Shown: positions 5,228-37,616, counted from the stretch's first letter. The stretch is 64,000 bases of DNA from Aliarcobacter sp. (GCA_028688995.1 JAQTXB010000004.1:35636-99635); one strand, 5' to 3'. Made by a program: numbers and translations. Notes: generated by a model not told the origin, from the letters alone.

Positions 5228-6969
5228 TGGCAAATAAACACTTAGTAATTGATCCAATTACAAGAATTGAAGGACATCTTAGAATTGAAGCAATTATAGA
5301 TGAAAACAATACTGTAGTAGATGCTTATTCTTCATCAACAATGTTTAGAGGGATTGAAGAGATTTTAAAAGGAAGAGACCCAAGAGATTGTGGTCTATTA
5401 GCAATGAGAATTTGTGGAGTTTGTACAGGAACTCACTATCAAAGAAGTATTGAAGCAGTTGAACATGCGTTTAAAATTACTATTCCTAAAAATGCAAGAT
5501 TAGTAAGAAACCTTATTCAAGGTGCTTTATATGTACATGACCATATTGTTCATTTCTATCATTTACATGCACTTGACTGGGTTGATATTACAGAAGCTTT
5601 AAAAGCTGATCCAAAAGCAACAGTTGCAGAAGCTCAAAAATGGGCAGCAGTTTCAGGTCACAGACCATGGAATGCAACAGAAGATGTTTATGCACAAGTT
5701 CAAGAAAGAGTAACAAGATATGTAAAACAAGGAAGACTTGGAATCTTTGGAAACGCATATTGGGGAAGTAAAGGATTTAAACTAACTCCTGAGCAAAACT
5801 TAATTGGACTTTCTCACTATTTAGATGCTTTAGAATTACAAAGAGATTTAGCAAAAATGATGGCTATTTTTGGTGGAAAAAATCCACATCCACAATCATT
5901 TGTTGTAGGTGGAGTAACTTGTGTTCAAGATATTAAAAATCCTGCAAGAATTGCTGAATTTAAGCAAATTCTAAAAAGAGGTCAAAAATTCACTAAAGAA
6001 GCATATTTACCAGATGTTTATATGGCTGGAACAATGTATGCTGGTGAAGCATTAGAAGGAATTGGTGGTGGTTTAGGAAACTATATGTGTTATGGAGACT
6101 TTAGACTTGATGATACACCATTCTATGAAGCAGCAAAATTATTCCCATCAGGAATTGTAAAAAACAAAGATTTATCAAAAGTATTTGATATTGACCAAAC
6201 AAAAATTACAGAAGATGTTACTCATGCTTGGTATGAAGGTAATACAAATTTACATCCATTTGAAGGTGTTACTAAACCTGCATATACTGGTTTTGGTAAA
6301 AAAGAAGACAATATTGCTTATCTTGATACAACTAAAAAATATTCTTGGATTAAATCTCCATTATATGATGACGAAAGAATGGAAGTTGGACCACTAGCTA
6401 GAATGATAGTAGGTGTTGCACGTGGTGATGAGAGAATTTCTAAATATGTAACAACATTCTTAAAAAACGGAAACTTACCAACAGCTGTATTATTTTCAAC
6501 AGTTGGTAGAACTGCAGCTCGTGCAATTGAAACAGAACTTATGGTTGATGTTATGATGGAATGGGTTGATGAATTAGCTTCAAATGTAGCCCATGGAGAT
6601 TTATCAACATGGACTGAATTTAATTTTGAGAATGTTTCAAAAGAGGCTCAAGGTTATGGAATGGCTGAAGCTCCAAGAGGTGGTTTAGGACATTGGATTA
6701 AAATCAAAGATGGAAAAGTAATAAATTATCAAGCGGTAGTTCCATCAACTTGGAATGCAGCTCCAAGAGATTATAAAGGAAGAATGGGTGCTTATGAATC
6801 AGCATTAATTGGTACAAAAGTAGCAAATGTGGATCAACCACTTGAGATTTTAAGAACAATCCATAGTTTTGACCCTTGTATTGCTTGTGCTGTACATATT
6901 GTTGACACAAAAGGTAAAGAATTAGGTGTTTATAAAGTAGATCCAATTGGAGGAACAAGCCGTGCCTAA
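5227..6969 (+). CDS. hydB: [NiFe]-hydrogenase large subunit
   Basis: DPITRIEGH, L1 RICGVC, L2 DPCIACAVH followed by a cleavable C-terminal extension. Confidence 0.97.
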   Translation: MANKHLVIDPITRIEGHLRIEAIIDENNTVVDAYSSSTMFRGIEEILKGRDPRDCGLLAMRICGVCTGTHYQRSIEAVEHAFKITIPKNARLVRNLIQGALYVHDHIVHFYHLHALDWVDITEALKADPKATVAEAQKWAAVSGHRPWNATEDVYAQVQERVTRYVKQGRLGIFGNAYWGSKGFKLTPEQNLIGLSHYLDALELQRDLAKMMAIFGGKNPHPQSFVVGGVTCVQDIKNPARIAEFKQILKRGQKFTKEAYLPDVYMAGTMYAGEALEGIGGGLGNYMCYGDFRLDDTPFYEAAKLFPSGIVKNKDLSKVFDIDQTKITEDVTHAWYEGNTNLHPFEGVTKPAYTGFGKKEDNIAYLDTTKKYSWIKSPLYDDERMEVGPLARMIVGVARGDERISKYVTTFLKNGNLPTAVLFSTVGRTAARAIETELMVDVMMEWVDELASNVAHGDLSTWTEFNFENVSKEAQGYGMAEAPRGGLGHWIKIKDGKVINYQAVVPSTWNAAPRDYKGRMGAYESALIGTKVANVDQPLEILRTIHSFDPCIACAVHIVDTKGKELGVYKVDPIGGTSRA

Positions 6970-7666
6970 CATTAAAGAGGTTAAAAGAATGACAGGAACT
7001 ATGCGAATCATACATTGGGCTAATGCTATATGTATGGTAGTTGCTGTTATAACCGGTTTATATATAGGTCACCCTTATTACCAATCATTTATTGCTGATC
7101 CTGCTGTGGATAAGTATGTAATGGCATGGAATAGATGGGGGCATTTTATAGTTGCAATTATCTTTGATGTAACTGCTGTAATAATTGGTTATTTATATTT
7201 CTTTTCAAGATTTGAAAAACCATATAAAAAACTAATACCAACTATAAAAAATATAGTTGAATTTTGTGAAGTATTCTTAAATCTAATTACTTTTAATAGA
7301 AGAAAGAAATTTGATTCATCACATAGTGATAGTTATAATATTGTATTTTTCACAATATTCCATCTATTATTAATATTTATGTTATTTACTGGACTTCAAC
7401 TTTATGTTCATGGTTTAGCATCAGGTGAGAGTTCTATTGGATCTTGGTGGCCTTGGATGCTTCACTTTACAACTGATTGGACTTTAAATGTATTTGGTGG
7501 AAATATGGGTGTTAGAATTGCTCATCATACATCAATGTATTTAATTCTAGTTTGGGTAATGTGTCATATTTATTATCAAATCTGGAGAACAATCTTCTGG
7601 AAAGAGGGTGACATTGCTATTGTCATTGGCGGAAGTAAGTTTGTAAGAGAAGAAGAAAAAAAATAG
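6947..7666 (+). CDS. hydC: Hydrogenase cytochrome b subunit
   Basis: RIIHWANA, RWGHF, RIAHH His ligands in TM helices; follows hydB. Confidence 0.93.
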   Translation: MEEQAVPNIKEVKRMTGTMRIIHWANAICMVVAVITGLYIGHPYYQSFIADPAVDKYVMAWNRWGHFIVAIIFDVTAVIIGYLYFFSRFEKPYKKLIPTIKNIVEFCEVFLNLITFNRRKKFDSSHSDSYNIVFFTIFHLLLIFMLFTGLQLYVHGLASGESSIGSWWPWMLHFTTDWTLNVFGGNMGVRIAHHTSMYLILVWVMCHIYYQIWRTIFWKEGDIAIVIGGSKFVREEEKK

Positions 7667-7673
7667 AGAAAAC

Positions 7674-7693
7674 AAGGGGCGAAAGCCCCTTTT
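7674..7693 (+). terminator. Intrinsic terminator between hydC and hydD
   Basis: AAGGGGC-GAAA-GCCCCTT followed by a short T run. Confidence 0.7.
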
Positions 7694-7711
7694 CATTTAA
7701 AGGTGTAATTT

Positions 7712-8305
7712 ATGAAAAAAAGAAATATTGTAATTGGTGTTGGAAATATGCTTTTTAAAGATGAAGGTATTGGTATTTACGCTTCTGAGTATATTAGTCA
7801 AAATTACGAGTTCGATGATAAAGATTTAGAGATAATTGATGGTGGGACATTAGGGTTTAAACTAATGGCATATTTTCAAGAGTATGACAATGTTATTATT
7901 TTAGATACTGTGTCTATTGAAGATGAGATAGGAGGAATTTATAGACTTCCATCTGATGTACTTTTAGGATTAGGAAACTACAGAAAAACAGCCCATGAGG
8001 TTGAAATTGTAGAGATGTTAGAAATAGTTTCTGTTTTAGATTCTCATGCAAATGTAACAATAATAGGGATAATTCCAAAAGATATTGAAAGTGTTCAAAT
8101 AGGGCTTACAAATGAGATGGAAGATAAATTTGAAGAGTTTATTTTAAATGGTATAAAAGAGATAGAAAGTCTTGGAATTAAAGCTACAAAAGTAAATGAT
8201 ATAAAAATTAGTGATGTAGTAAAAAGCATGATAGGAAGTTATAATGGTGAACATTTAACAAGAATCCCAAATGAAGAAGATTTTACCCATGCAATTAATT
8301 TATAA
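7712..8305 (+). CDS. hydD: Hydrogenase maturation endopeptidase
   Basis: IGVGNMLFKDEGIG, IIDGGTLG, KTAHEV motifs of the HyaD/HybD family. Confidence 0.95.
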   Translation: MKKRNIVIGVGNMLFKDEGIGIYASEYISQNYEFDDKDLEIIDGGTLGFKLMAYFQEYDNVIILDTVSIEDEIGGIYRLPSDVLLGLGNYRKTAHEVEIVEMLEIVSVLDSHANVTIIGIIPKDIESVQIGLTNEMEDKFEEFILNGIKEIESLGIKATKVNDIKISDVVKSMIGSYNGEHLTRIPNEEDFTHAINL

Positions 8306-31652: not shown

Positions 31653-33518
31653 TTGAATAATATTAAAATTAAAAATTATCAAATCTTTTTGTTTTCTTTC
31701 TTATTTAGTGTAAATATTTTTGCTTTAGATAAGTTAGATTCTACTCCTTTTGTTTTAACTCAAAATGAGAAAAATTGGATAGAAACACATCCTATAATAA
31801 AAGTAGGTGTTGATAAAGATTATGCTCCTTATGAGTGGCTTGAAAATGAAGAGTATAAAGGTCTTGCTGTTGATTATATGAAACGAATTGAAAAAATTGT
31901 AGGAATAGAGTTTCAAATAGTTAAAAATAAATCTTGGAATGAAATCATAAATATGGCCAAAAATGGTGAAATTGATATGATTACAAGTATTGTGCAAACT
32001 CCTGAAAGATCAAAATATCTTAATTTTACAGAATTTTATAGAAAGTGTCCCGTAATTATTATTGACAGAGGGAATAATGGTTTTATTGGAGGATTAAAAT
32101 ATCTTAATAATAAAAAAGTTTCTATTGAAAAAGATTATTTTATGGAAGAGATTTTAAGAACTAATTATCCAAATATAAAATTACAAGTTGTTGATAGCAC
32201 AAAAAAAGCTTTAGAATTGGCAAATTCAGGGGAAGTTGATGCTTATGTTGGAGATTTAGGACTTGCAGATTATTTAATTAAAAAAAATAATTTATCAAAT
32301 TTACGTTTTTCAGGTCAAACTGAATATTTTAGTGACCAAGGTTTTGCTGTTACAAAAAATAATTCTGAACTTTTGAGTATTTTAAATAAAGCTGTAAAAT
32401 CTTTACCTGAAGATGAAACAGAAAATATGTTTAATTATTGGTTGAGTGTAGAGCGTGGGATAGATGTAAAAACTATAGTTTTTTACATTATAGGTATAAC
32501 ATTTATTTTACTAAGTATAATTTATTGGGTTTATAGATTAAGAAGTGAAATAAATCAACGTAAAATTATAGAAGATAAATTAAAACAGAGTGAATCCCTT
32601 TATCGACAATTAACAGAAGATGTAAATGATGTTATTTGGAAAGTAAATACAAATTTTATAGTTACTTATATTAGTCCTGCAGATGAACGATTTAGAGGAT
32701 TTAATGCAAGTGAAGTAATAGGAAAAAGTATTTTTGAATTGTTTACAGATGAAAGTATTATTCTTCTTAATGAAAAATTAAAAGAGAGATTTGAATTATT
32801 GCAAAAAGGTAATAAATTACCTCCTTTGAAAATAGAACTTCAACATAAATGTAAAGATGGAACAATAATTTGGGGTGAAATTTTATCAAAACAAGAGTTT
32901 GATGAAAATGGAAATATTATTGGTTATCATGGAATAACAAGGGAAATTACTGAACGTAAAAAACTACAAGAAAAAATAGAACAATTAGCTTATTGTGATA
33001 CCCTTACAAAACTGCCAAATCGTCGTTCTTTAGAAGATAAAATAAATTTTATAATGTCAAAAAGTGAGAGAAGTCAAAAGTATTGTGCTTTGGTTTTTAT
33101 TGATTTAGATAATTTTAAACCACTAAATGATACTTATGGACATAATGTTGGGGATATATTATTGATTGAAGTTGCAAATAGGTTAAAAAGCAGTATTAGA
33201 AAACTTGATGCGGTTGCTAGAATTGGTGGCGATGAGTTTGTAATTGTACTTGATGAATTTGATGAGGATATAAAAACATCAAAAGAAAATATTTTTAAAG
33301 TAGTTGAAAAAATAAGAATTTATATAGCCCAACCATATAAATTTAGTATAATAAATGAAGATAAAGAAAATATAGATATTGAGCATCATTGTACAGCTAG
33401 TATTGGAATTTGTATGTTCAAAGGAGAACAAGAGAGTTCTATAAATATCTTCAAATGTGCAGATTCAGCAATGTATGAATCAAAAGAATCAGGACGAAAT
33501 ACTATTAAGTTTTTCTAG
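31653..33518 (+). CDS. Diguanylate cyclase: periplasmic binding-protein sensor, TM, PAS, GGDEF
   Basis: VGVDKDYAPY PBP domain; TM; PAS/PAC (GYHGITREIT); DTLTKLPNRR, DLDNFKPLNDTYGHNVGD, ARIGGDEF. Confidence 0.93.
   Translation: MNNIKIKNYQIFLFSFLFSVNIFALDKLDSTPFVLTQNEKNWIETHPIIKVGVDKDYAPYEWLENEEYKGLAVDYMKRIEKIVGIEFQIVKNKSWNEIINMAKNGEIDMITSIVQTPERSKYLNFTEFYRKCPVIIIDRGNNGFIGGLKYLNNKKVSIEKDYFMEEILRTNYPNIKLQVVDSTKKALELANSGEVDAYVGDLGLADYLIKKNNLSNLRFSGQTEYFSDQGFAVTKNNSELLSILNKAVKSLPEDETENMFNYWLSVERGIDVKTIVFYIIGITFILLSIIYWVYRLRSEINQRKIIEDKLKQSESLYRQLTEDVNDVIWKVNTNFIVTYISPADERFRGFNASEVIGKSIFELFTDESIILLNEKLKERFELLQKGNKLPPLKIELQHKCKDGTIIWGEILSKQEFDENGNIIGYHGITREITERKKLQEKIEQLAYCDTLTKLPNRRSLEDKINFIMSKSERSQKYCALVFIDLDNFKPLNDTYGHNVGDILLIEVANRLKSSIRKLDAVARIGGDEFVIVLDEFDEDIKTSKENIFKVVEKIRIYIAQPYKFSIINEDKENIDIEHHCTASIGICMFKGEQESSINIFKCADSAMYESKESGRNTIKFF
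33291..33514 (+). repeat. 224-bp direct repeat, copy 1 (3' end of the diguanylate cyclase gene)
   Basis: Matches 35358-35581 with 5 substitutions. Confidence 0.95.
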
Positions 33519-33526
33519 GATGGGAT

Positions 33527-33640
33527 TTAGTTTCGTTCCCAAGCTCTAGCTTGGGAATGCATACTTTTAGCAAAACAATATTTTGATTTATCTCACTTTT
33601 TTTATCTGCATTCCCAACGAAGACGTTGGGAACGAAGAAA
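33527..33640. repeat. REP doublet (REPIN-like) copy 1
   Basis: TTCGTTCCCAAGCTCTAGCTTGGGAATGCA ... TGCATTCCCAACGAAGACGTTGGGAACGAA: two 9-bp hairpins in inverted orientation. Confidence 0.9.
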
Positions 33641-33685
33641 AGTTATCGTTATCCCCTGTGACGCTAATGTTTAATGTTGTATTAT

Positions 33686-33946
33686 TCATCTTAACAATAA
33701 ATAAATTATACCTACAATTGTTAATATTATTAAAAAAAATATTGTTCCAACTTTATTTCCTATAATATCTATACGATTTAAATACAAATTCTTTTTACTG
33801 ATTTCTTTTTGACTAAAATTTTTATCTTTATTTATTTCTTTAGAATTATATTTCTCATATAAAATAAAAAATATAATAGAAACTATTATCACTGACAAAA
33901 TTATTTCAAAATTATTTATTAATATTGTTAAACCATTTACTTGCAT
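33686..33946 (-). CDS. Small two-TM membrane protein (86 aa)
   Basis: SD AAGGA; two hydrophobic segments around a Lys-rich loop. Confidence 0.7.
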   Translation of the reverse strand: MQVNGLTILINNFEIILSVIIVSIIFFILYEKYNSKEINKDKNFSQKEISKKNLYLNRIDIIGNKVGTIFFLIILTIVGIIYLLLR

Positions 33947-34005
33947 TTTTATTCCTTATCTTTTTTTGTAGTATTTTCATATAAATCTATAACACCATTT
34001 ATTGT

Positions 34006-34118
34006 TTAGTTTCGTTCCCAAGCTCTAGCTTGGGAATGCATACTTTTAGCAAAATACTATTTCAATTTGTCTTACTTTTTTATCTGCATTCCCAACGAAG
34101 ACGTTGGGAACGAAGAAA
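34006..34118. repeat. REP doublet copy 2
   Basis: Both REP hairpins identical to copy 1; internal spacer diverged from copy 1. Confidence 0.9.
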
Positions 34119-34268
34119 TGAGCTATTTTTTATAATTTTCATTTTGGAATAATATGCATTTTAATAAACTCTTGAACTCTTACATCATTATTATCTAATT
34201 GTATTTCTTTTAGAAGGTAACTTTTAAAACAATTAAACTGCCTATTTTTTCACTTCGTTTAACATTTA

Positions 34269-34565
34269 TTACTTCCCTTCAATTTTATTGTTTTGGAAGA
34301 CTTCTTTTTCTTTGTCTGTTAATGGAATAAAAAGTTTCTGATCAAATTCCTGTTTAGGCATATTTTTTAGATTTGTTGCTTCTTCATATTTATCTACTAT
34401 CCAATAAAGTGTAAAAACAACAATAAATCCAAATAATAAATTCTTTATATCTTTTTTTATTATAGAGAATACATATGATTTACTTTTTGTTTTATTATAT
34501 GATTGTATCCAAGTGTATAAATAAAAACCAATAATTAAAGACCATATAATAATTAATTTAATCAT
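34269..34565 (-). CDS. Small two-TM membrane protein (98 aa; start MIKLII)
   Basis: ATG 1 nt after the upstream stop; two hydrophobic segments. Confidence 0.65.
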   Translation of the reverse strand: MIKLIIIWSLIIGFYLYTWIQSYNKTKSKSYVFSIIKKDIKNLLFGFIVVFTLYWIVDKYEEATNLKNMPKQEFDQKLFIPLTDKEKEVFQNNKIEGK

Positions 34566-34566
34566 T

Positions 34567-34920
34567 TTATTTTTCTTCTTCGATGAAAATAAAGTTTGCA
34601 TCTTCTGTTATACCATATGTTGCACCTTGAAATTTTATATGATTCCATTGATTTTGGATATGTGCATCAATTCTAGGTTGAAGTTTATCTATTTTTGATT
34701 GTGACTTTGCATCATACGCTTCTTTTTGTAACTTCTTCCACGCTTCATTTGAATATCTAAAAGAACCCTTTGTTTTATCTAAAGCTGTGTCAAGCATTGA
34801 AGGAGCTAACACGAATCCTGTAATTCCTGACATTATTACCTCTTTTTCATTTATATTAATATCATTCCAATTTATATTATTCATATAAAAAGTTTTTTGA
34901 TTCCACATTTGTTCTGCAAC
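34567..34920 (-). CDS. Small soluble ORF: either an 88-aa protein from ATG 34833 or the 3' part of a gene truncated at REP doublet 3
   Basis: Frame stays open back to the repeat edge; SD GAGGT before MSGITG. Confidence 0.55.
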   Translation of the reverse strand, partial: VAEQMWNQKTFYMNNINWNDININEKEVIMSGITGFVLAPSMLDTALDKTKGSFRYSNEAWKKLQKEAYDAKSQSKIDKLQPRIDAHIQNQWNHIKFQGATYGITEDANFIFIEEEK

Positions 34921-35033
34921 TTAGTTTCGTTCCCAAGCTCTAGCTTGGGAATGCATACTTTTAGCAAAATACTATTTCAATTTGTCTTACTTTTTTATCT
35001 GCATTCCCAATGAGGACGATGTGAACGAAGAAA
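34921..35033. repeat. REP doublet copy 3 (right-hand REP decayed)
   Basis: Identical to copy 2 except 4 substitutions in the right hairpin. Confidence 0.9.
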
Positions 35034-35057
35034 AGTTACCTATCCTCTTTAGATAAA

Positions 35058-35094
35058 ATTATATTAAAACTGTGTCACATACGGTGTCACAGTT
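35058..35094 (-). promoter_or_regulatory. Candidate promoter pointing into the repeat array, with a tandem GTGACAC box
   Basis: Minus strand AACTGTGACACCGTATGTGACACAGTTTTAA-TATAAT then AAAGAGGA. Confidence 0.4.
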
Positions 35095-35131
35095 CTTTAC
35101 TTTTCAGAATTTCATTTGATTATTGGGGTTA

Positions 35132-35170
35132 TTATCTGGATTCCCAACAAGGACGTTGGGAACGAGGAAA
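35132..35170. repeat. Solitary REP (right half of a decayed fourth doublet)
   Basis: TTATCTGGATTCCCAACAAGGACGTTGGGAACGAGGAAA, 8-bp stem intact. Confidence 0.8.
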
Positions 35171-35357
35171 TAATTAAATTTGATTTTTAAATCATTAGTT
35201 TATTTTAGAAGTATCTTAATTTTATTTGTTACCTATTGTAAACAACGAGAGCTCAAATAGAAAATATATAAATTTACTAAATTGAGACATTTCATAAGAT
35301 ATGAATTAAAAAAATATAGTATATAAAGTTATATTATCAATTTATTTTGAATCTTAC

Positions 35358-35588
35358 ATTTTTAAAGTAGTTGAAAAAATAAGAATTTATATAGCTCAAC
35401 CATATAAATTTAGCATAATAAATGAAGATAAAGAAAATATAGATATTGAGCATCATTGTACAGCAAGTATTGGAATTTGTATGTTCAAAGGAGAAGAAGA
35501 GAGTTCTATAAATATCTTCAAATGTGCAGATTCAGCAATGTATGAATCAAAAGAATCAGGAAGAAATACTATTAAGTTTTTTGAATAA
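35358..35588 (+). pseudogene. Start-less duplicate of the diguanylate cyclase 3' end (direct repeat copy 2)
   Basis: Reads IFKVVEK...GRNTIKFFE* versus ...KFF* in the intact gene. Confidence 0.9.
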
Positions 35589-35630
35589 GTAGAAAATAAT
35601 TTTGAAATATAAAATTAAATAGAAGTTATA

Positions 35631-35659
35631 AATGGGCAAGTTTTAAAAACTTGCCCATT
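35631..35659. terminator. Inverted repeat overlapping the MCP stop codon
   Basis: AATGGGCAAGTTTT-A-AAAACTTGCCCATT. Confidence 0.7.
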
Positions 35660-37616
35660 CATCGTCATCTTTATCATTTGATGAAACTACTTTTGTTTCA
35701 CTTTTTGTATTTGTAATTGGCTTTTTAGTTTGAGTTGGAGTTTTACTTATAGTTTTTGCTGGTGCTGATTTATTCTCTAAAACTTTTGCTGTAACTTCAT
35801 CTTTTCCTATAAACTCTTTTGCATTAGCATTTGAAACAACTAATCTTGCAATTGTATCTGTTTGAACAGCTACTTCATAAGTTTGTGAAGCTATTATTGC
35901 ATTTTGTTGAGTTTGTTGATCTAGTGCGCTAATAGCATCATTTATTTGCTCAATTCCTGCTAATTGTTCTTTACTTGAACCTTCTATACTTTTTATAAGG
36001 TCAATTGTTTGTGAGATATTTTCATTTAGCATTTTGTAACCACTAATCATATCTTCTGATATTCTTTTTCCTTGGTCAGCTTTTCTTGTAGCAGTTTCAA
36101 CTAAAACTTTAATCTCTTTTGCAGCTTCTGCTGAACGAGATGCAAGATTTCTTACTTCTGCTGCAACTACTGCAAATCCTTTTCCAGCTTCTCCAGCAGT
36201 TGCAGCTTCAACAGCTGCATTTAGTGAAAGAATATTTGTTTGGAAGGCAATTTGGTCAATTACGCTAATTGCTTCATTAATTGCGTTTACTTCTCTATCA
36301 ATTTCATTCATAGCATCAGTTGTTTGATTTGCTAAATTTTCACCTTTTGAAGCTGAATCAGTTACGCTAGAAGCCAATTGAGACATTTTAACAATGTTAT
36401 TTGTGTTATTTGAAATATTGCTTGAGATTTCTTCAACAGCAGCAGCTGTTTCTTCTAAAGCAGCAGCAGCTTCATTCGAATTTCTATTTAATGTATCAAC
36501 ATTTTTTAGAAGTATATGACTACTTTCACCTAATGTTAATCCATTTGATTTATTTTCTACTAGCATATCATTTATTATATCTGCAAGATTATTTAATCCC
36601 ACAGTTACACCACTATTACACCCTTTGATTCTATGTGTAAAATCAAGACTTGCATATCTTTCAAGGGCAAAACTAATGTCATTGATATTTGTACAAACTC
36701 TTAATTGAAGACTTAATAACATATCATTAATATGATGTCTTAAACTCTCTAAACTTTGAGATTCTGTTTTATTATCAAGTCTTTTACTTAAGAATCCTTC
36801 TTTAATTGTTAAAACAATTTGATTTATCTCTTCTAGGAATTTGTTATCTGAATCAATTGCACTTTTTGATTTAGAGATATTTTGATTTACAACATGAGCC
36901 ATAGTTCCAAATTCATCATGGTTCTTATCATCTAACATTTCAACTGTTGTAGATTCTTTGTTTATATATCCAAAGAAACTTAATAAGCCATTTTGGAAGT
37001 TATTAATTGATGTTATTAATTGTGATGATAAAGCAAGTGAGAAAGCAACAAAAAATAGTATTGCAATAATTGCTAGTGTGATTAAAACAACATTCATTGT
37101 ACTAATTGCATCATCTTTCATCTTAATAGCATTACCATTTATTTGATTTAATAGTTTTTCTAACTCTAATCCAATATCAGCCATCTCTTTAATAGTAGCT
37201 AATATTTCAGGAGACTCTTTATCTATTGCATTTTTATAATCTGTTATTCTTTTTTGTGAGAATTTATCAAAACTTTGTATGTAATTCTTTGAATTTTCTA
37301 CAATTTTATTAGATAAATCAATATTTTCTTGTGCGGTTAATTTATTTTTAAAGTTTAAAACTAGATTATCTAAAGTAGAAAAATCATCTCTAACTTTTTG
37401 AGCTTTTGCTTCATCAGGAGTTCGTAAGAATTGATAAACAGAAATTCGCCCTTTTAATACCTGTTGAATAAATATATCAGTTTGGTTAGCTGCATTGGTT
37501 AAACGTTTTGTAACACCATCATAATAACTAAATATTGAAGCTGATATTATTACAATTAAAATAAAAGCCAAAGGTAAAAGCATAAGCTTTATTCGTGTAG
37601 AGACGTTTTTTAACAA
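35643..37616 (-). CDS. Methyl-accepting chemotaxis protein with C-terminal EWASF pentapeptide
   Basis: Two TM helices, periplasmic sensor, [34 protein letters not shown]; TTG start with SD AAGGA. Confidence 0.95.

Follow-up and report, generated by a model that had tools for sequence, protein, structure and literature searches.

A recombinase-free REPIN islet bracketed by a long duplication of a diguanylate cyclase gene tail in Aliarcobacter

How does the 3′ end of a gene come to stand on both sides of a small island that has no integrase? The question is raised by a 64,000-nucleotide stretch of DNA from Aliarcobacter sp. (GCA_028688995.1 JAQTXB010000004.1:35636-99635; hereafter the window), in which the end of a diguanylate cyclase gene occurs twice. 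The assembly (2.95 Mb, 27% G+C, 96% complete; genome G000 below) places the locus on a 235-kb contig. An earlier, sequence-only reading had proposed an element that integrates into a gene and supplies a replacement 3′ end, or alternatively the remnant of a tandem paralog that had lost its 5′ part. On balance, we lean towards reading the repeat as what a horizontal 'insertion with long target duplication' left behind, with host recombination acting on DNA that the cell had taken up, and with copy 1 of the repeat from the donor and copy 2 from the recipient.

A repeat search of the window identified one direct pair of 224 nt, at 33291-33514 (copy 1) and 35358-35581 (copy 2), with 98% identity and a spacing of 2067. 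In pairwise alignment, identity starts abruptly at ATTTTT and ends at AAGTTTTT, and the flanks are unrelated. These are the only two copies in the whole assembly (E 8e-114 and 7e-107). After them, the best matches reach 78–84% over 49 nt, and the search for a full-length paralog of copy 2 that had been suggested returned none. Alignment confirmed the coordinates, the five differences and the two ends that had been read by eye. Four mismatches (GCC/GCT, AGT/AGC, GCT/GCA and CGA/AGA, copy 1/copy 2) are synonymous and one (CAA/GAA) exchanges Q for E. Copy 1 terminates in AAG TTT TTC TAG (KFF-stop) and copy 2 in AAG TTT TTT GAA TAA (KFFE-stop).

Copy 1 is formed by the final 75 codons of a working gene. 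This intact gene (31653-33518, + strand) encodes a 621-aa diguanylate cyclase with a periplasmic solute-binding domain, a PAS domain and a GGDEF domain (Pfam matches SBP_bac_3, 3e-27; PAS_9, 2e-11; GGDEF, 1e-42, profile positions 1-160 of 161). At the left junction (33515-33526, + strand), an island-derived C-TAG is followed by eight further unique bases before the first of three repeat units (REPIN A, described below). The island's C completes the codon TTC, and its TAG is the stop codon of the working cyclase gene. The insert spans 33515-35357 (1,843 bp), so that copy 2 sits 2,067 bp downstream of copy 1. Copy 2 consists of the 224-nt repeat plus T GAA TAA (35358-35588, + strand), a displaced native tail that has neither a start codon nor an open reading frame (ORF). 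Native downstream DNA comes next, and the native downstream neighbour is a methyl-accepting chemotaxis protein (MCP) gene (35643-37616, − strand; Pfam MCPsignal, 5e-38).

We gathered orthologous cyclase loci with the cyclase protein from genome contigs and metagenome contigs. The sample comprises eight other Aliarcobacter species genomes (in part metagenome-assembled genomes) and five metagenome contigs, at 84–89% protein identity. All of these loci are empty sites: each has a single tail, colinear with both copies, and the sequence past that tail continues as the sequence after copy 2 does. An empty site with one copy beside the MCP gene had been anticipated, although the relatives' tail ends KF(Y/N)E-stop rather than KFFE-stop (codons TAT/AAT GAA TAA/TGA). 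Downstream, the MCP gene follows directly, except that an unrelated insert comes first in two loci and one short locus ends before the MCP gene. In copy 1, agreement with the relatives stops exactly after AAGTTTTT and gives way to C-TAG and then the repeat element. Therefore, the working gene takes its stop from the island, and copy 2 is a relic, displaced downstream. Comparison with the relatives shows that the repeat marks a real insertion and that copy 2 is a dead relic of the native tail.

A genus-wide DNA search with the whole insert as query found no second copy of this island at the cyclase locus. The spacer between the cyclase and MCP genes is variable elsewhere. In genome G016 it holds a 207-aa LysE-like membrane gene (L050 8870-9516), and in one metagenome contig a 3.7-kb insert (L142 6372-10104).

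The five differences between the copies are informative about their history. Random substitutions in the repeat sequence would be synonymous in 18–24% of cases, and the probability that at least four of five are synonymous is 0.005–0.013. Orthologues vary at 93 of the 224 columns; all five sites are among these, and the orthologues themselves are polymorphic at the Q/E site. The suggestion that the synonymous bias reflects evolution of both copies as coding sequence is thus supported. Identity between the copies is 98%, whereas over the 224 bp neither copy exceeds about 92% identity to another species, suggesting that the two are within-species alleles; over the last 615 bp of the cyclase gene, identity to other species is at most 90%. 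We therefore consider, with moderate confidence, that the five differences fit two alleles, each evolved inside a working gene, and not the decay of a relic after in situ duplication. Copy 1 is probably the donor allele and copy 2 the recipient allele, roles for which these five sites are the sole basis.

The insert has no recombinase domain or recombinase ORF (ORF list, Pfam and NCBIfam), as the sequence-only reading had stated of integrases, and the interval 33000-36000 has no Rfam match at E ≤ 1. It contains three copies of a unit of about 113 nt, all on the + strand: REPIN A (33527-33641, with hairpin H1 at 33532-33561 and hairpin H2 at 33607-33636), REPIN B (34006-34118) and REPIN C (34921-35033). 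The 113-nt unit comprises two mutually inverted palindromes, TTCCCAAGC-TCTA-GCTTGGGAA and TTCCCAACG-AAGA-CGTTGGGAA. Its single-strand DNA folds have z-scores of -4.9 and -5.3 (near -5 across the family). In G016 (OY781945.1), G008, G053 and G058, a 177-aa ORF lies between the same two hairpins. In G016 (locus L053) the order is H1, ORF, H2, and the ORF is a REP-associated tyrosine transposase, RAYT (NF047646, 1.7e-30; PF01797, 5e-6). The 113-nt units are REPINs, or paired REP hairpins, because these hairpins flank a RAYT ORF in related genomes.

RAYT genes are sparsely distributed in the genus. They score above the family cut-off in six of 44 genus genomes, and G000 is not among the six. Neither tblastn nor the family search found a RAYT in G000, an absence that is not absolute in an assembly that is 96% complete. 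The REPIN population of G000 consists of six full copies, all in two clusters, plus a few singlets.

Both of these clusters carry the scar. The second array (C16:346797-348670; locus L019 6797-8670) has the same leader, called X here, and the same REPINs, with different small ORFs. Its order is a Crp/FNR-like gene, 36 bp, X, three REPIN-separated cassettes (70, 68/115 and 84 aa), a REP singlet, the relic and comEA. A 27/28-nt duplication of the Crp/FNR-like gene tail brackets the array. The relic, just before comEA, retains the native stop and downstream DNA, and the Crp-ComEA site is empty in the three closest relatives (Crp 96–99% identical).

We identified a third case in another species, G053 (locus L072 830-2634), where an X-headed array ending in a REPIN stands at an aldo/keto-reductase gene. 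The 127-bp duplicated tail consists of 85 bp that are identical (85/85) and of recipient type in both copies, plus 42 bp that have diverged. After the 85 bp, the intact gene continues with a 42-bp tail (LTNDEINSILNLLN-stop) and 55 bp, which are 95–96% identical to the end of this gene and the start of the next one in another lineage, G050/G012; the intact gene thus carries the cut start of that lineage's downstream gene behind its foreign tail. The relic retains the native-type end (LLEEEINKIYNLLV-stop), and G000 has an empty site with the native-type end. Judged by these identities, the last 42 bp of the intact gene are demonstrably foreign, literally a replacement 3′ end. The order of the product, as read from the alignment, is recipient DNA up to a crossover, donor tail and island, and then recipient DNA re-entered 85 bp upstream. 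A RAYT, with REP hairpins on either side, follows after another 4 kb. One cassette of this array (152 aa) resembles a truncated HlyD-like protein, by eye only.

The scar also occurs without REP sequences. A genome-wide scan of G000 for close direct repeats identified the tail of a GalE-like gene in two copies (86 bp, 92%; C16:122935-123841), one on each side of a 735-bp ORF pair (94 and 149 aa) with no REP hairpins. Judged by sequence alone, the two ORFs resemble an MNT-type nucleotidyltransferase with its HEPN-type partner, a toxin-antitoxin pair. The intact GalE-like gene ends in EWENK-stop, overlapping the start of the first ORF, and the relic ends in EWESKTIRKINK-stop. A REP-free toxin-antitoxin pair with the same scar removes the grounds for treating the GGDEF gene as a special target.

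Two further duplications in G000 accompany integrase-like ORFs; all gene names here come from sequence only. As a contrast case, a 37-bp duplication of the rpsU (S21) tail surrounds a 5.6-kb island with an integrase-like ORF (C21:12492-18145). At C2:50790-55174, a HipB/HipA-like pair is surrounded by a duplication (733 bp, 95%) of an integrase-like gene's 3′ part.

In the window's scar and its three parallels, the duplications measure 28, 86, 127 (85+42) and 224 bp, and no att core or microhomology common to the four was seen by eye. The window's array is broken between REPIN A and a 186-bp spacer, and the other two arrays between the tail REP and X; the three arrays lie in either orientation relative to the target. 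Because break points, orientations and duplications (28–224 bp) differ and the arrays have no junction motif in common, one fixed attachment site is disfavoured. The proposed element with a replacement 3′ end survives in part. An insertion with empty sites, a native copy 2, an island-closed gene and the foreign tail of G053 are all present. A dedicated element that integrates itself at an att site is not supported by three arrays broken at different places, with duplications of 28, 127 and 224 bp and no junction motif. Among 16 further REP-cluster loci of relatives, flanking duplications were found in the G053 case alone.

The window's island reads from right to left. Its head is leader X (35034-35128, − strand, 95 nt), and every cassette ORF downstream is on the − strand. 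X contains a tandem GTGACAC box and a -10-like hexamer (TATAAT/TAATAT), and has a promoter-like match on the − strand at 35090-35061, consistent with a putative promoter role. It is 83% identical to the leader of the second island; X-like stretches are present in G016, G053, G058 and G008, and X heads related arrays too. On the outer side of X lie a REP singlet, T, made of hairpin H2 alone (35129-35171, + strand) and most similar to the singlet at the end of the second island, and an AT-rich spacer of 186 bp (35172-35357) up to the right junction. The first 57 bp of the spacer are 93% identical to DNA beside an X-like box in G008.

Behind X and REPIN C come cassette 2a, an ORF of 113 aa (34567-34908, − strand), and cassette 2b, a membrane ORF of 110 aa (34269-34601, − strand). 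Just 3′ of the latter, a 57-nt conserved stretch (34208-34264) recurs in at least six other Aliarcobacter genomes at 84–89% identity, twice in some, and has no stable fold and no Rfam match. REPIN B separates these from cassette 1, a hydrophobic ORF of 86 aa (33686-33946, − strand), for which we found no family match and no homologue in the genus. Finally, H1 of REPIN A is terminator-like for the cyclase gene on the + strand.

Pfam and NCBIfam searches of the six cassette ORFs of both G000 islands returned nothing meaningful, and clues to the cargo come from the genus. The 110-aa ORF is 100% identical in protein to a G008 gene (DNA 96% over 555 bp) that stands among orphan modules downstream of a CdiA-like gene, and it has an internal 196 bp alone in common with a G016 homologue. 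The 113-aa ORF is similar to the final 100 residues encoded by a 369-aa ORF of the same G008 array (BLASTP 34% identity, E 6e-9), and is therefore probably a cut toxin-region gene end. That array (L071; G008:C2:74000-93900) contains CdiA-like ORFs with haemagglutinin (Fil_haemagg_2) repeats, small ORFs after each, and at least three orphan modules of a toxin tip plus a small ORF, which together are arranged like a CdiA-type toxin gene and its orphan tip and immunity modules. Three separate stretches of it recur in the window's island and one in the second island. L071 also carries an X-like GTCAC box without a REP singlet.

The 84-aa ORF of the second island has 98% DNA identity to a G008 gene in the immunity position, where a 636-aa orphan ORF overlaps it with its end; this homology begins exactly at the REPIN end. 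The small ORFs look like orphan immunity genes or fragments, since they recur beside CdiA-like toxin tips in G008. Homologues lie directly downstream of polymorphic toxin tips, as in orphan-immunity arrays of the acquired interbacterial defence (AID) type. From position alone, we predict that the cassettes comprise immunity genes orphaned from their toxins, together with truncated ends of toxin genes, and the 110-aa membrane ORF is immunity-like in this positional sense. With five G008 toxin-region ORFs as queries, tblastn gave no hit in G000. A REP-free region of another genome (G047:C1:1451219-1457258) has 69–79% DNA matches to all three second-island cassettes, and may be another toxin-immunity array and the source of those cassettes.

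Insertion with long target duplication was reportedly described by Nobusato et al. in 2000. Such insertions are recombinase-free and flanked by variable repeats of 46–423 bp, some over gene 3′ ends; the hosts (Helicobacter, Campylobacter, Haemophilus and Neisseria) are mostly naturally competent, and the mechanism is unproven (Furuta, Abe and Kobayashi 2010, PMC2853133). The described cargo consists of restriction-modification genes, and the authors tied the mechanism to DNA breakage by those enzymes (PMC2853133). The scar class is thus already known (PMC2853133), and cannot be claimed as novel here. Our cases resemble it in their recombinase-free, variable direct duplications (28–224 bp here versus 46–423 bp), empty site and overlap with gene 3′ ends, and Helicobacter and Campylobacter belong to the same phylum as Aliarcobacter. 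At the window's locus the insert is absent in relatives, the duplication exceeds 30 bp with no transposase or integrase in or beside the insert, and duplication length varies between events. Unlike the described class, these inserts have no restriction-modification gene, holding REPINs and immunity-like ORFs, and elsewhere a toxin-antitoxin pair, and in G053 a plainly foreign replacement tail comes on top. The novelty lies in the cargo, in the evidence that the scar does not depend on cargo, and in the chimeric G053 product.

Under the mechanism that we favour, a non-autonomous 1.84-kb islet was joined to the periplasmic binding protein (PBP)-PAS-GGDEF gene, two codons ahead of its stop. The islet comprises the leader, three REPIN-separated cassettes of orphan genes or fragments resembling immunity genes of contact-dependent inhibition (CDI), and the REP singlet. 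Integration would have proceeded through the host recombination machinery after DNA uptake, without a site-specific recombinase. The gene itself may have served as the homologous anchor on one side of the incoming DNA, and the far end would have been attached by an illegitimate joint within that same gene tail on the recipient side. As an alternative to the illegitimate joint, a circularised fragment may have entered by a single crossover. The working gene runs through copy 1, on this reading a donor (conspecific) allele, to the island TAG, with the recipient's last 224 bp, on this reading the recipient allele, pushed 2,067 bp downstream. Both this recombination route and the immunity function of the cargo are what we infer from the structures described above.

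This route has precedents. With one-sided homology in E. coli, single-crossover duplications of 109–950 bp are the commonest product (PMC3240628). Transformation can make duplications through interchromatid integration (PMC3784515), and a displacement model exists for orphan immunity arrays (PMC5361080). In the orphan arrays of cdiA, rhs and type VI secretion system (T6SS) loci (HFIR model, PMC5361080), upstream-anchored DNA displaces an old 3′ end that is kept as an orphan. Those arrays are also like the present islands in combining immunity genes and cut toxin ends with no integrase. They differ in that the DNA here is anchored in a housekeeping or signalling gene with no relation to the toxin, what is displaced is a near-identical tail and not a different toxin tip, and G000 has no toxin gene of the G008 family.

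Several observations weigh against integration by host recombination. First, searches of genus DNA and of genome and metagenome contigs found no donor with a clean cyclase-KFF-stop-REPIN junction and no conspecific genome. Second, sliding-window identity to relatives revealed no clear import tract ending at the island. Third, microhomology at the illegitimate joints is not evident. Finally, each of the four scars is a duplication and none a deletion, and at two joints a REP hairpin is immediately adjacent or no more than 17 nt away. Both features could point to a more specific mechanism.

One alternative gives an active role to the REP hairpins. REPIN-RAYT systems were reportedly described by Bertels and Rainey in 2011, with REPINs presented as vertically inherited, high-copy populations. 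The islets here are like those systems in their 113-nt doublets of inverted REP hairpins and in the RAYT that the same hairpins flank in related genomes. Unlike them, G000 has only six full copies, all in two acquired islets, and no RAYT; its REPINs appear to have arrived horizontally as passengers. A RAYT (an HUH enzyme) acting in trans, in an ancestor or donor, might have cut a REP hairpin and joined the array to a single-stranded target, in a one-ended, IS91-like transfer whose other end was resolved by homology, giving the duplication.

Such a REP/RAYT-assisted joint is possible, though we think it unlikely. Consistent with it, both full REPIN clusters of G000 bear the scar, the G053 relic is fused directly to a REPIN end and the second-island relic lies 17 nt from a REP singlet. 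The homology of one cassette to G008 begins exactly at a REPIN end, and in G016, G008 and G053 these hairpins stand on either side of a RAYT. At one orthologous locus, two species also have different genes between the REP hairpins. Yet G000 has no RAYT, the window's relic adjoins the 186-bp spacer and not a REP, another cassette boundary is 34 nt off its REPIN, and the toxin-antitoxin pair has the same scar without any REP. In addition, Y1 enzymes of the IS200/IS605 type are not known to make target duplications.

REP-bounded variable slots exist outside the arrays too. In the two-species locus just mentioned, L056 (G021:C3) 6500-7950 and L057 (G005:C10) 5960-7500 hold a 332-aa and a 372-aa ORF, respectively, between the same REP hairpins. 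The slot lies between a 397-aa porin-like gene and a conserved pair of 153 aa and 382 aa.

A bolder extension of a REP-based joint would make the leader-plus-REPIN arrays a working, integron-like platform for gene capture. REP hairpins would serve as single-strand recombination sites with RAYT in trans, promoterless immunity cassettes would be stacked behind X, and the whole array would move between Aliarcobacter genomes and dock at gene tails. We regard this as speculative and rather improbable. If true, REPINs would be cassette borders and not just selfish or structural repeats, and RAYTs would gain a role in gene capture.

The arrays share with rAID-1 (recombinase-associated acquired interbacterial defence; bioRxiv 10.1101/471110) and integron/CALIN arrays their co-oriented small orphan immunity-like genes, repetitive spacers and leader. 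They differ in having no XerD-like or IntI recombinase, REPINs instead of attC sites, several 'cassettes' that are gene fragments, and cassette borders that match the repeats only sometimes. We considered and rejected an integron/attC reading, because the hairpins belong to RAYT: by inspection they are two perfect REP palindromes tied to that gene, and an integrase is absent. REPINs as constant cassette borders were also rejected, as one border is exact, another is 34 nt off the REPIN, and the match of the 110-aa ORF to its G016 homologue is confined to an internal 196 bp.

An event in situ, either fill-in of a staggered break or unequal sister exchange, would have produced copies that were identical at birth and differed later by mutation or allelic conversion. 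The identical 85/85 bp of the G053 duplication suits this idea, and Furuta et al. favour a route linked to double-strand breaks for restriction-modification cargo (PMC2853133). Relic decay, however, predicts about 80% non-synonymous changes; one of five is seen, and all five sites are naturally polymorphic. Fill-in, moreover, cannot produce the foreign 42-bp tail of G053. We consider an in situ origin improbable.

Elements such as e14 and phage 21 at icd, and islands at tRNA and tmRNA genes, give their target a working replacement 3′ end with mostly silent differences. Those of the e14/icd type encode their own integrase, use one fixed core site and leave the native tail at the other end. Unlike them, the islet has no integrase in or adjoining it, no shared core or attP arms, and a duplication of variable length. 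The idea of an e14/icd-like replacement tail thus holds as a description, and membership among integrase elements fails. A related possibility is a site-specific element mobilised in trans, whose attP would include the gene tail and whose tyrosine or serine recombinase would be encoded at another locus. It would explain why direct repeats stand at the 3′ end of a gene, why the replacement tail works and why the copies differ as alleles do, and G000 does contain classical integrase islands such as that at rpsU. Against it, no recombinase lies in or beside any of the three arrays, and the targets (GGDEF, Crp/FNR and aldo/keto reductase genes) are unrelated, with duplications of 224, 28 and 127 bp and differing break points and orientation. 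Nor would a foreign attP yield 85 bp of recipient type in both G053 copies. There is little reason to expect a trans-acting integrase here, and both it and in situ duplication are less likely than a REP/RAYT-assisted joint.

A tandem-paralog remnant or an assembly artefact has nothing beyond the repeat itself in its favour and is very improbable: the paralog is rejected because all relatives show empty sites with one gene at the locus, other GGDEF genes of G000 match at 78–84% at most over 49 nt and copy 2 is colinear with native downstream DNA, and an artefact is unlikely for copies that differ at five positions within a 235-kb contig and have an analogue in the near-finished, two-contig genome G053.

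Insertion by host recombination, the reading that we favour, has several implications. For annotation, the 224-bp relic should not be labelled as a GGDEF paralog or as a member of a pseudogene family. The long-target-duplication scar also forms around cargo without a nuclease of the restriction-modification type, which points to a route that is independent of cargo and driven by host recombination. The order of the G053 product offers a concrete structural clue to a mechanism that has so far been without experimental proof. REPINs can enter a genome without their transposase, as passengers of small islets. Finally, orphan-immunity-like cargo, set against the contact-dependent toxins of other Aliarcobacter, suggests that small defence islets exist in this genus.

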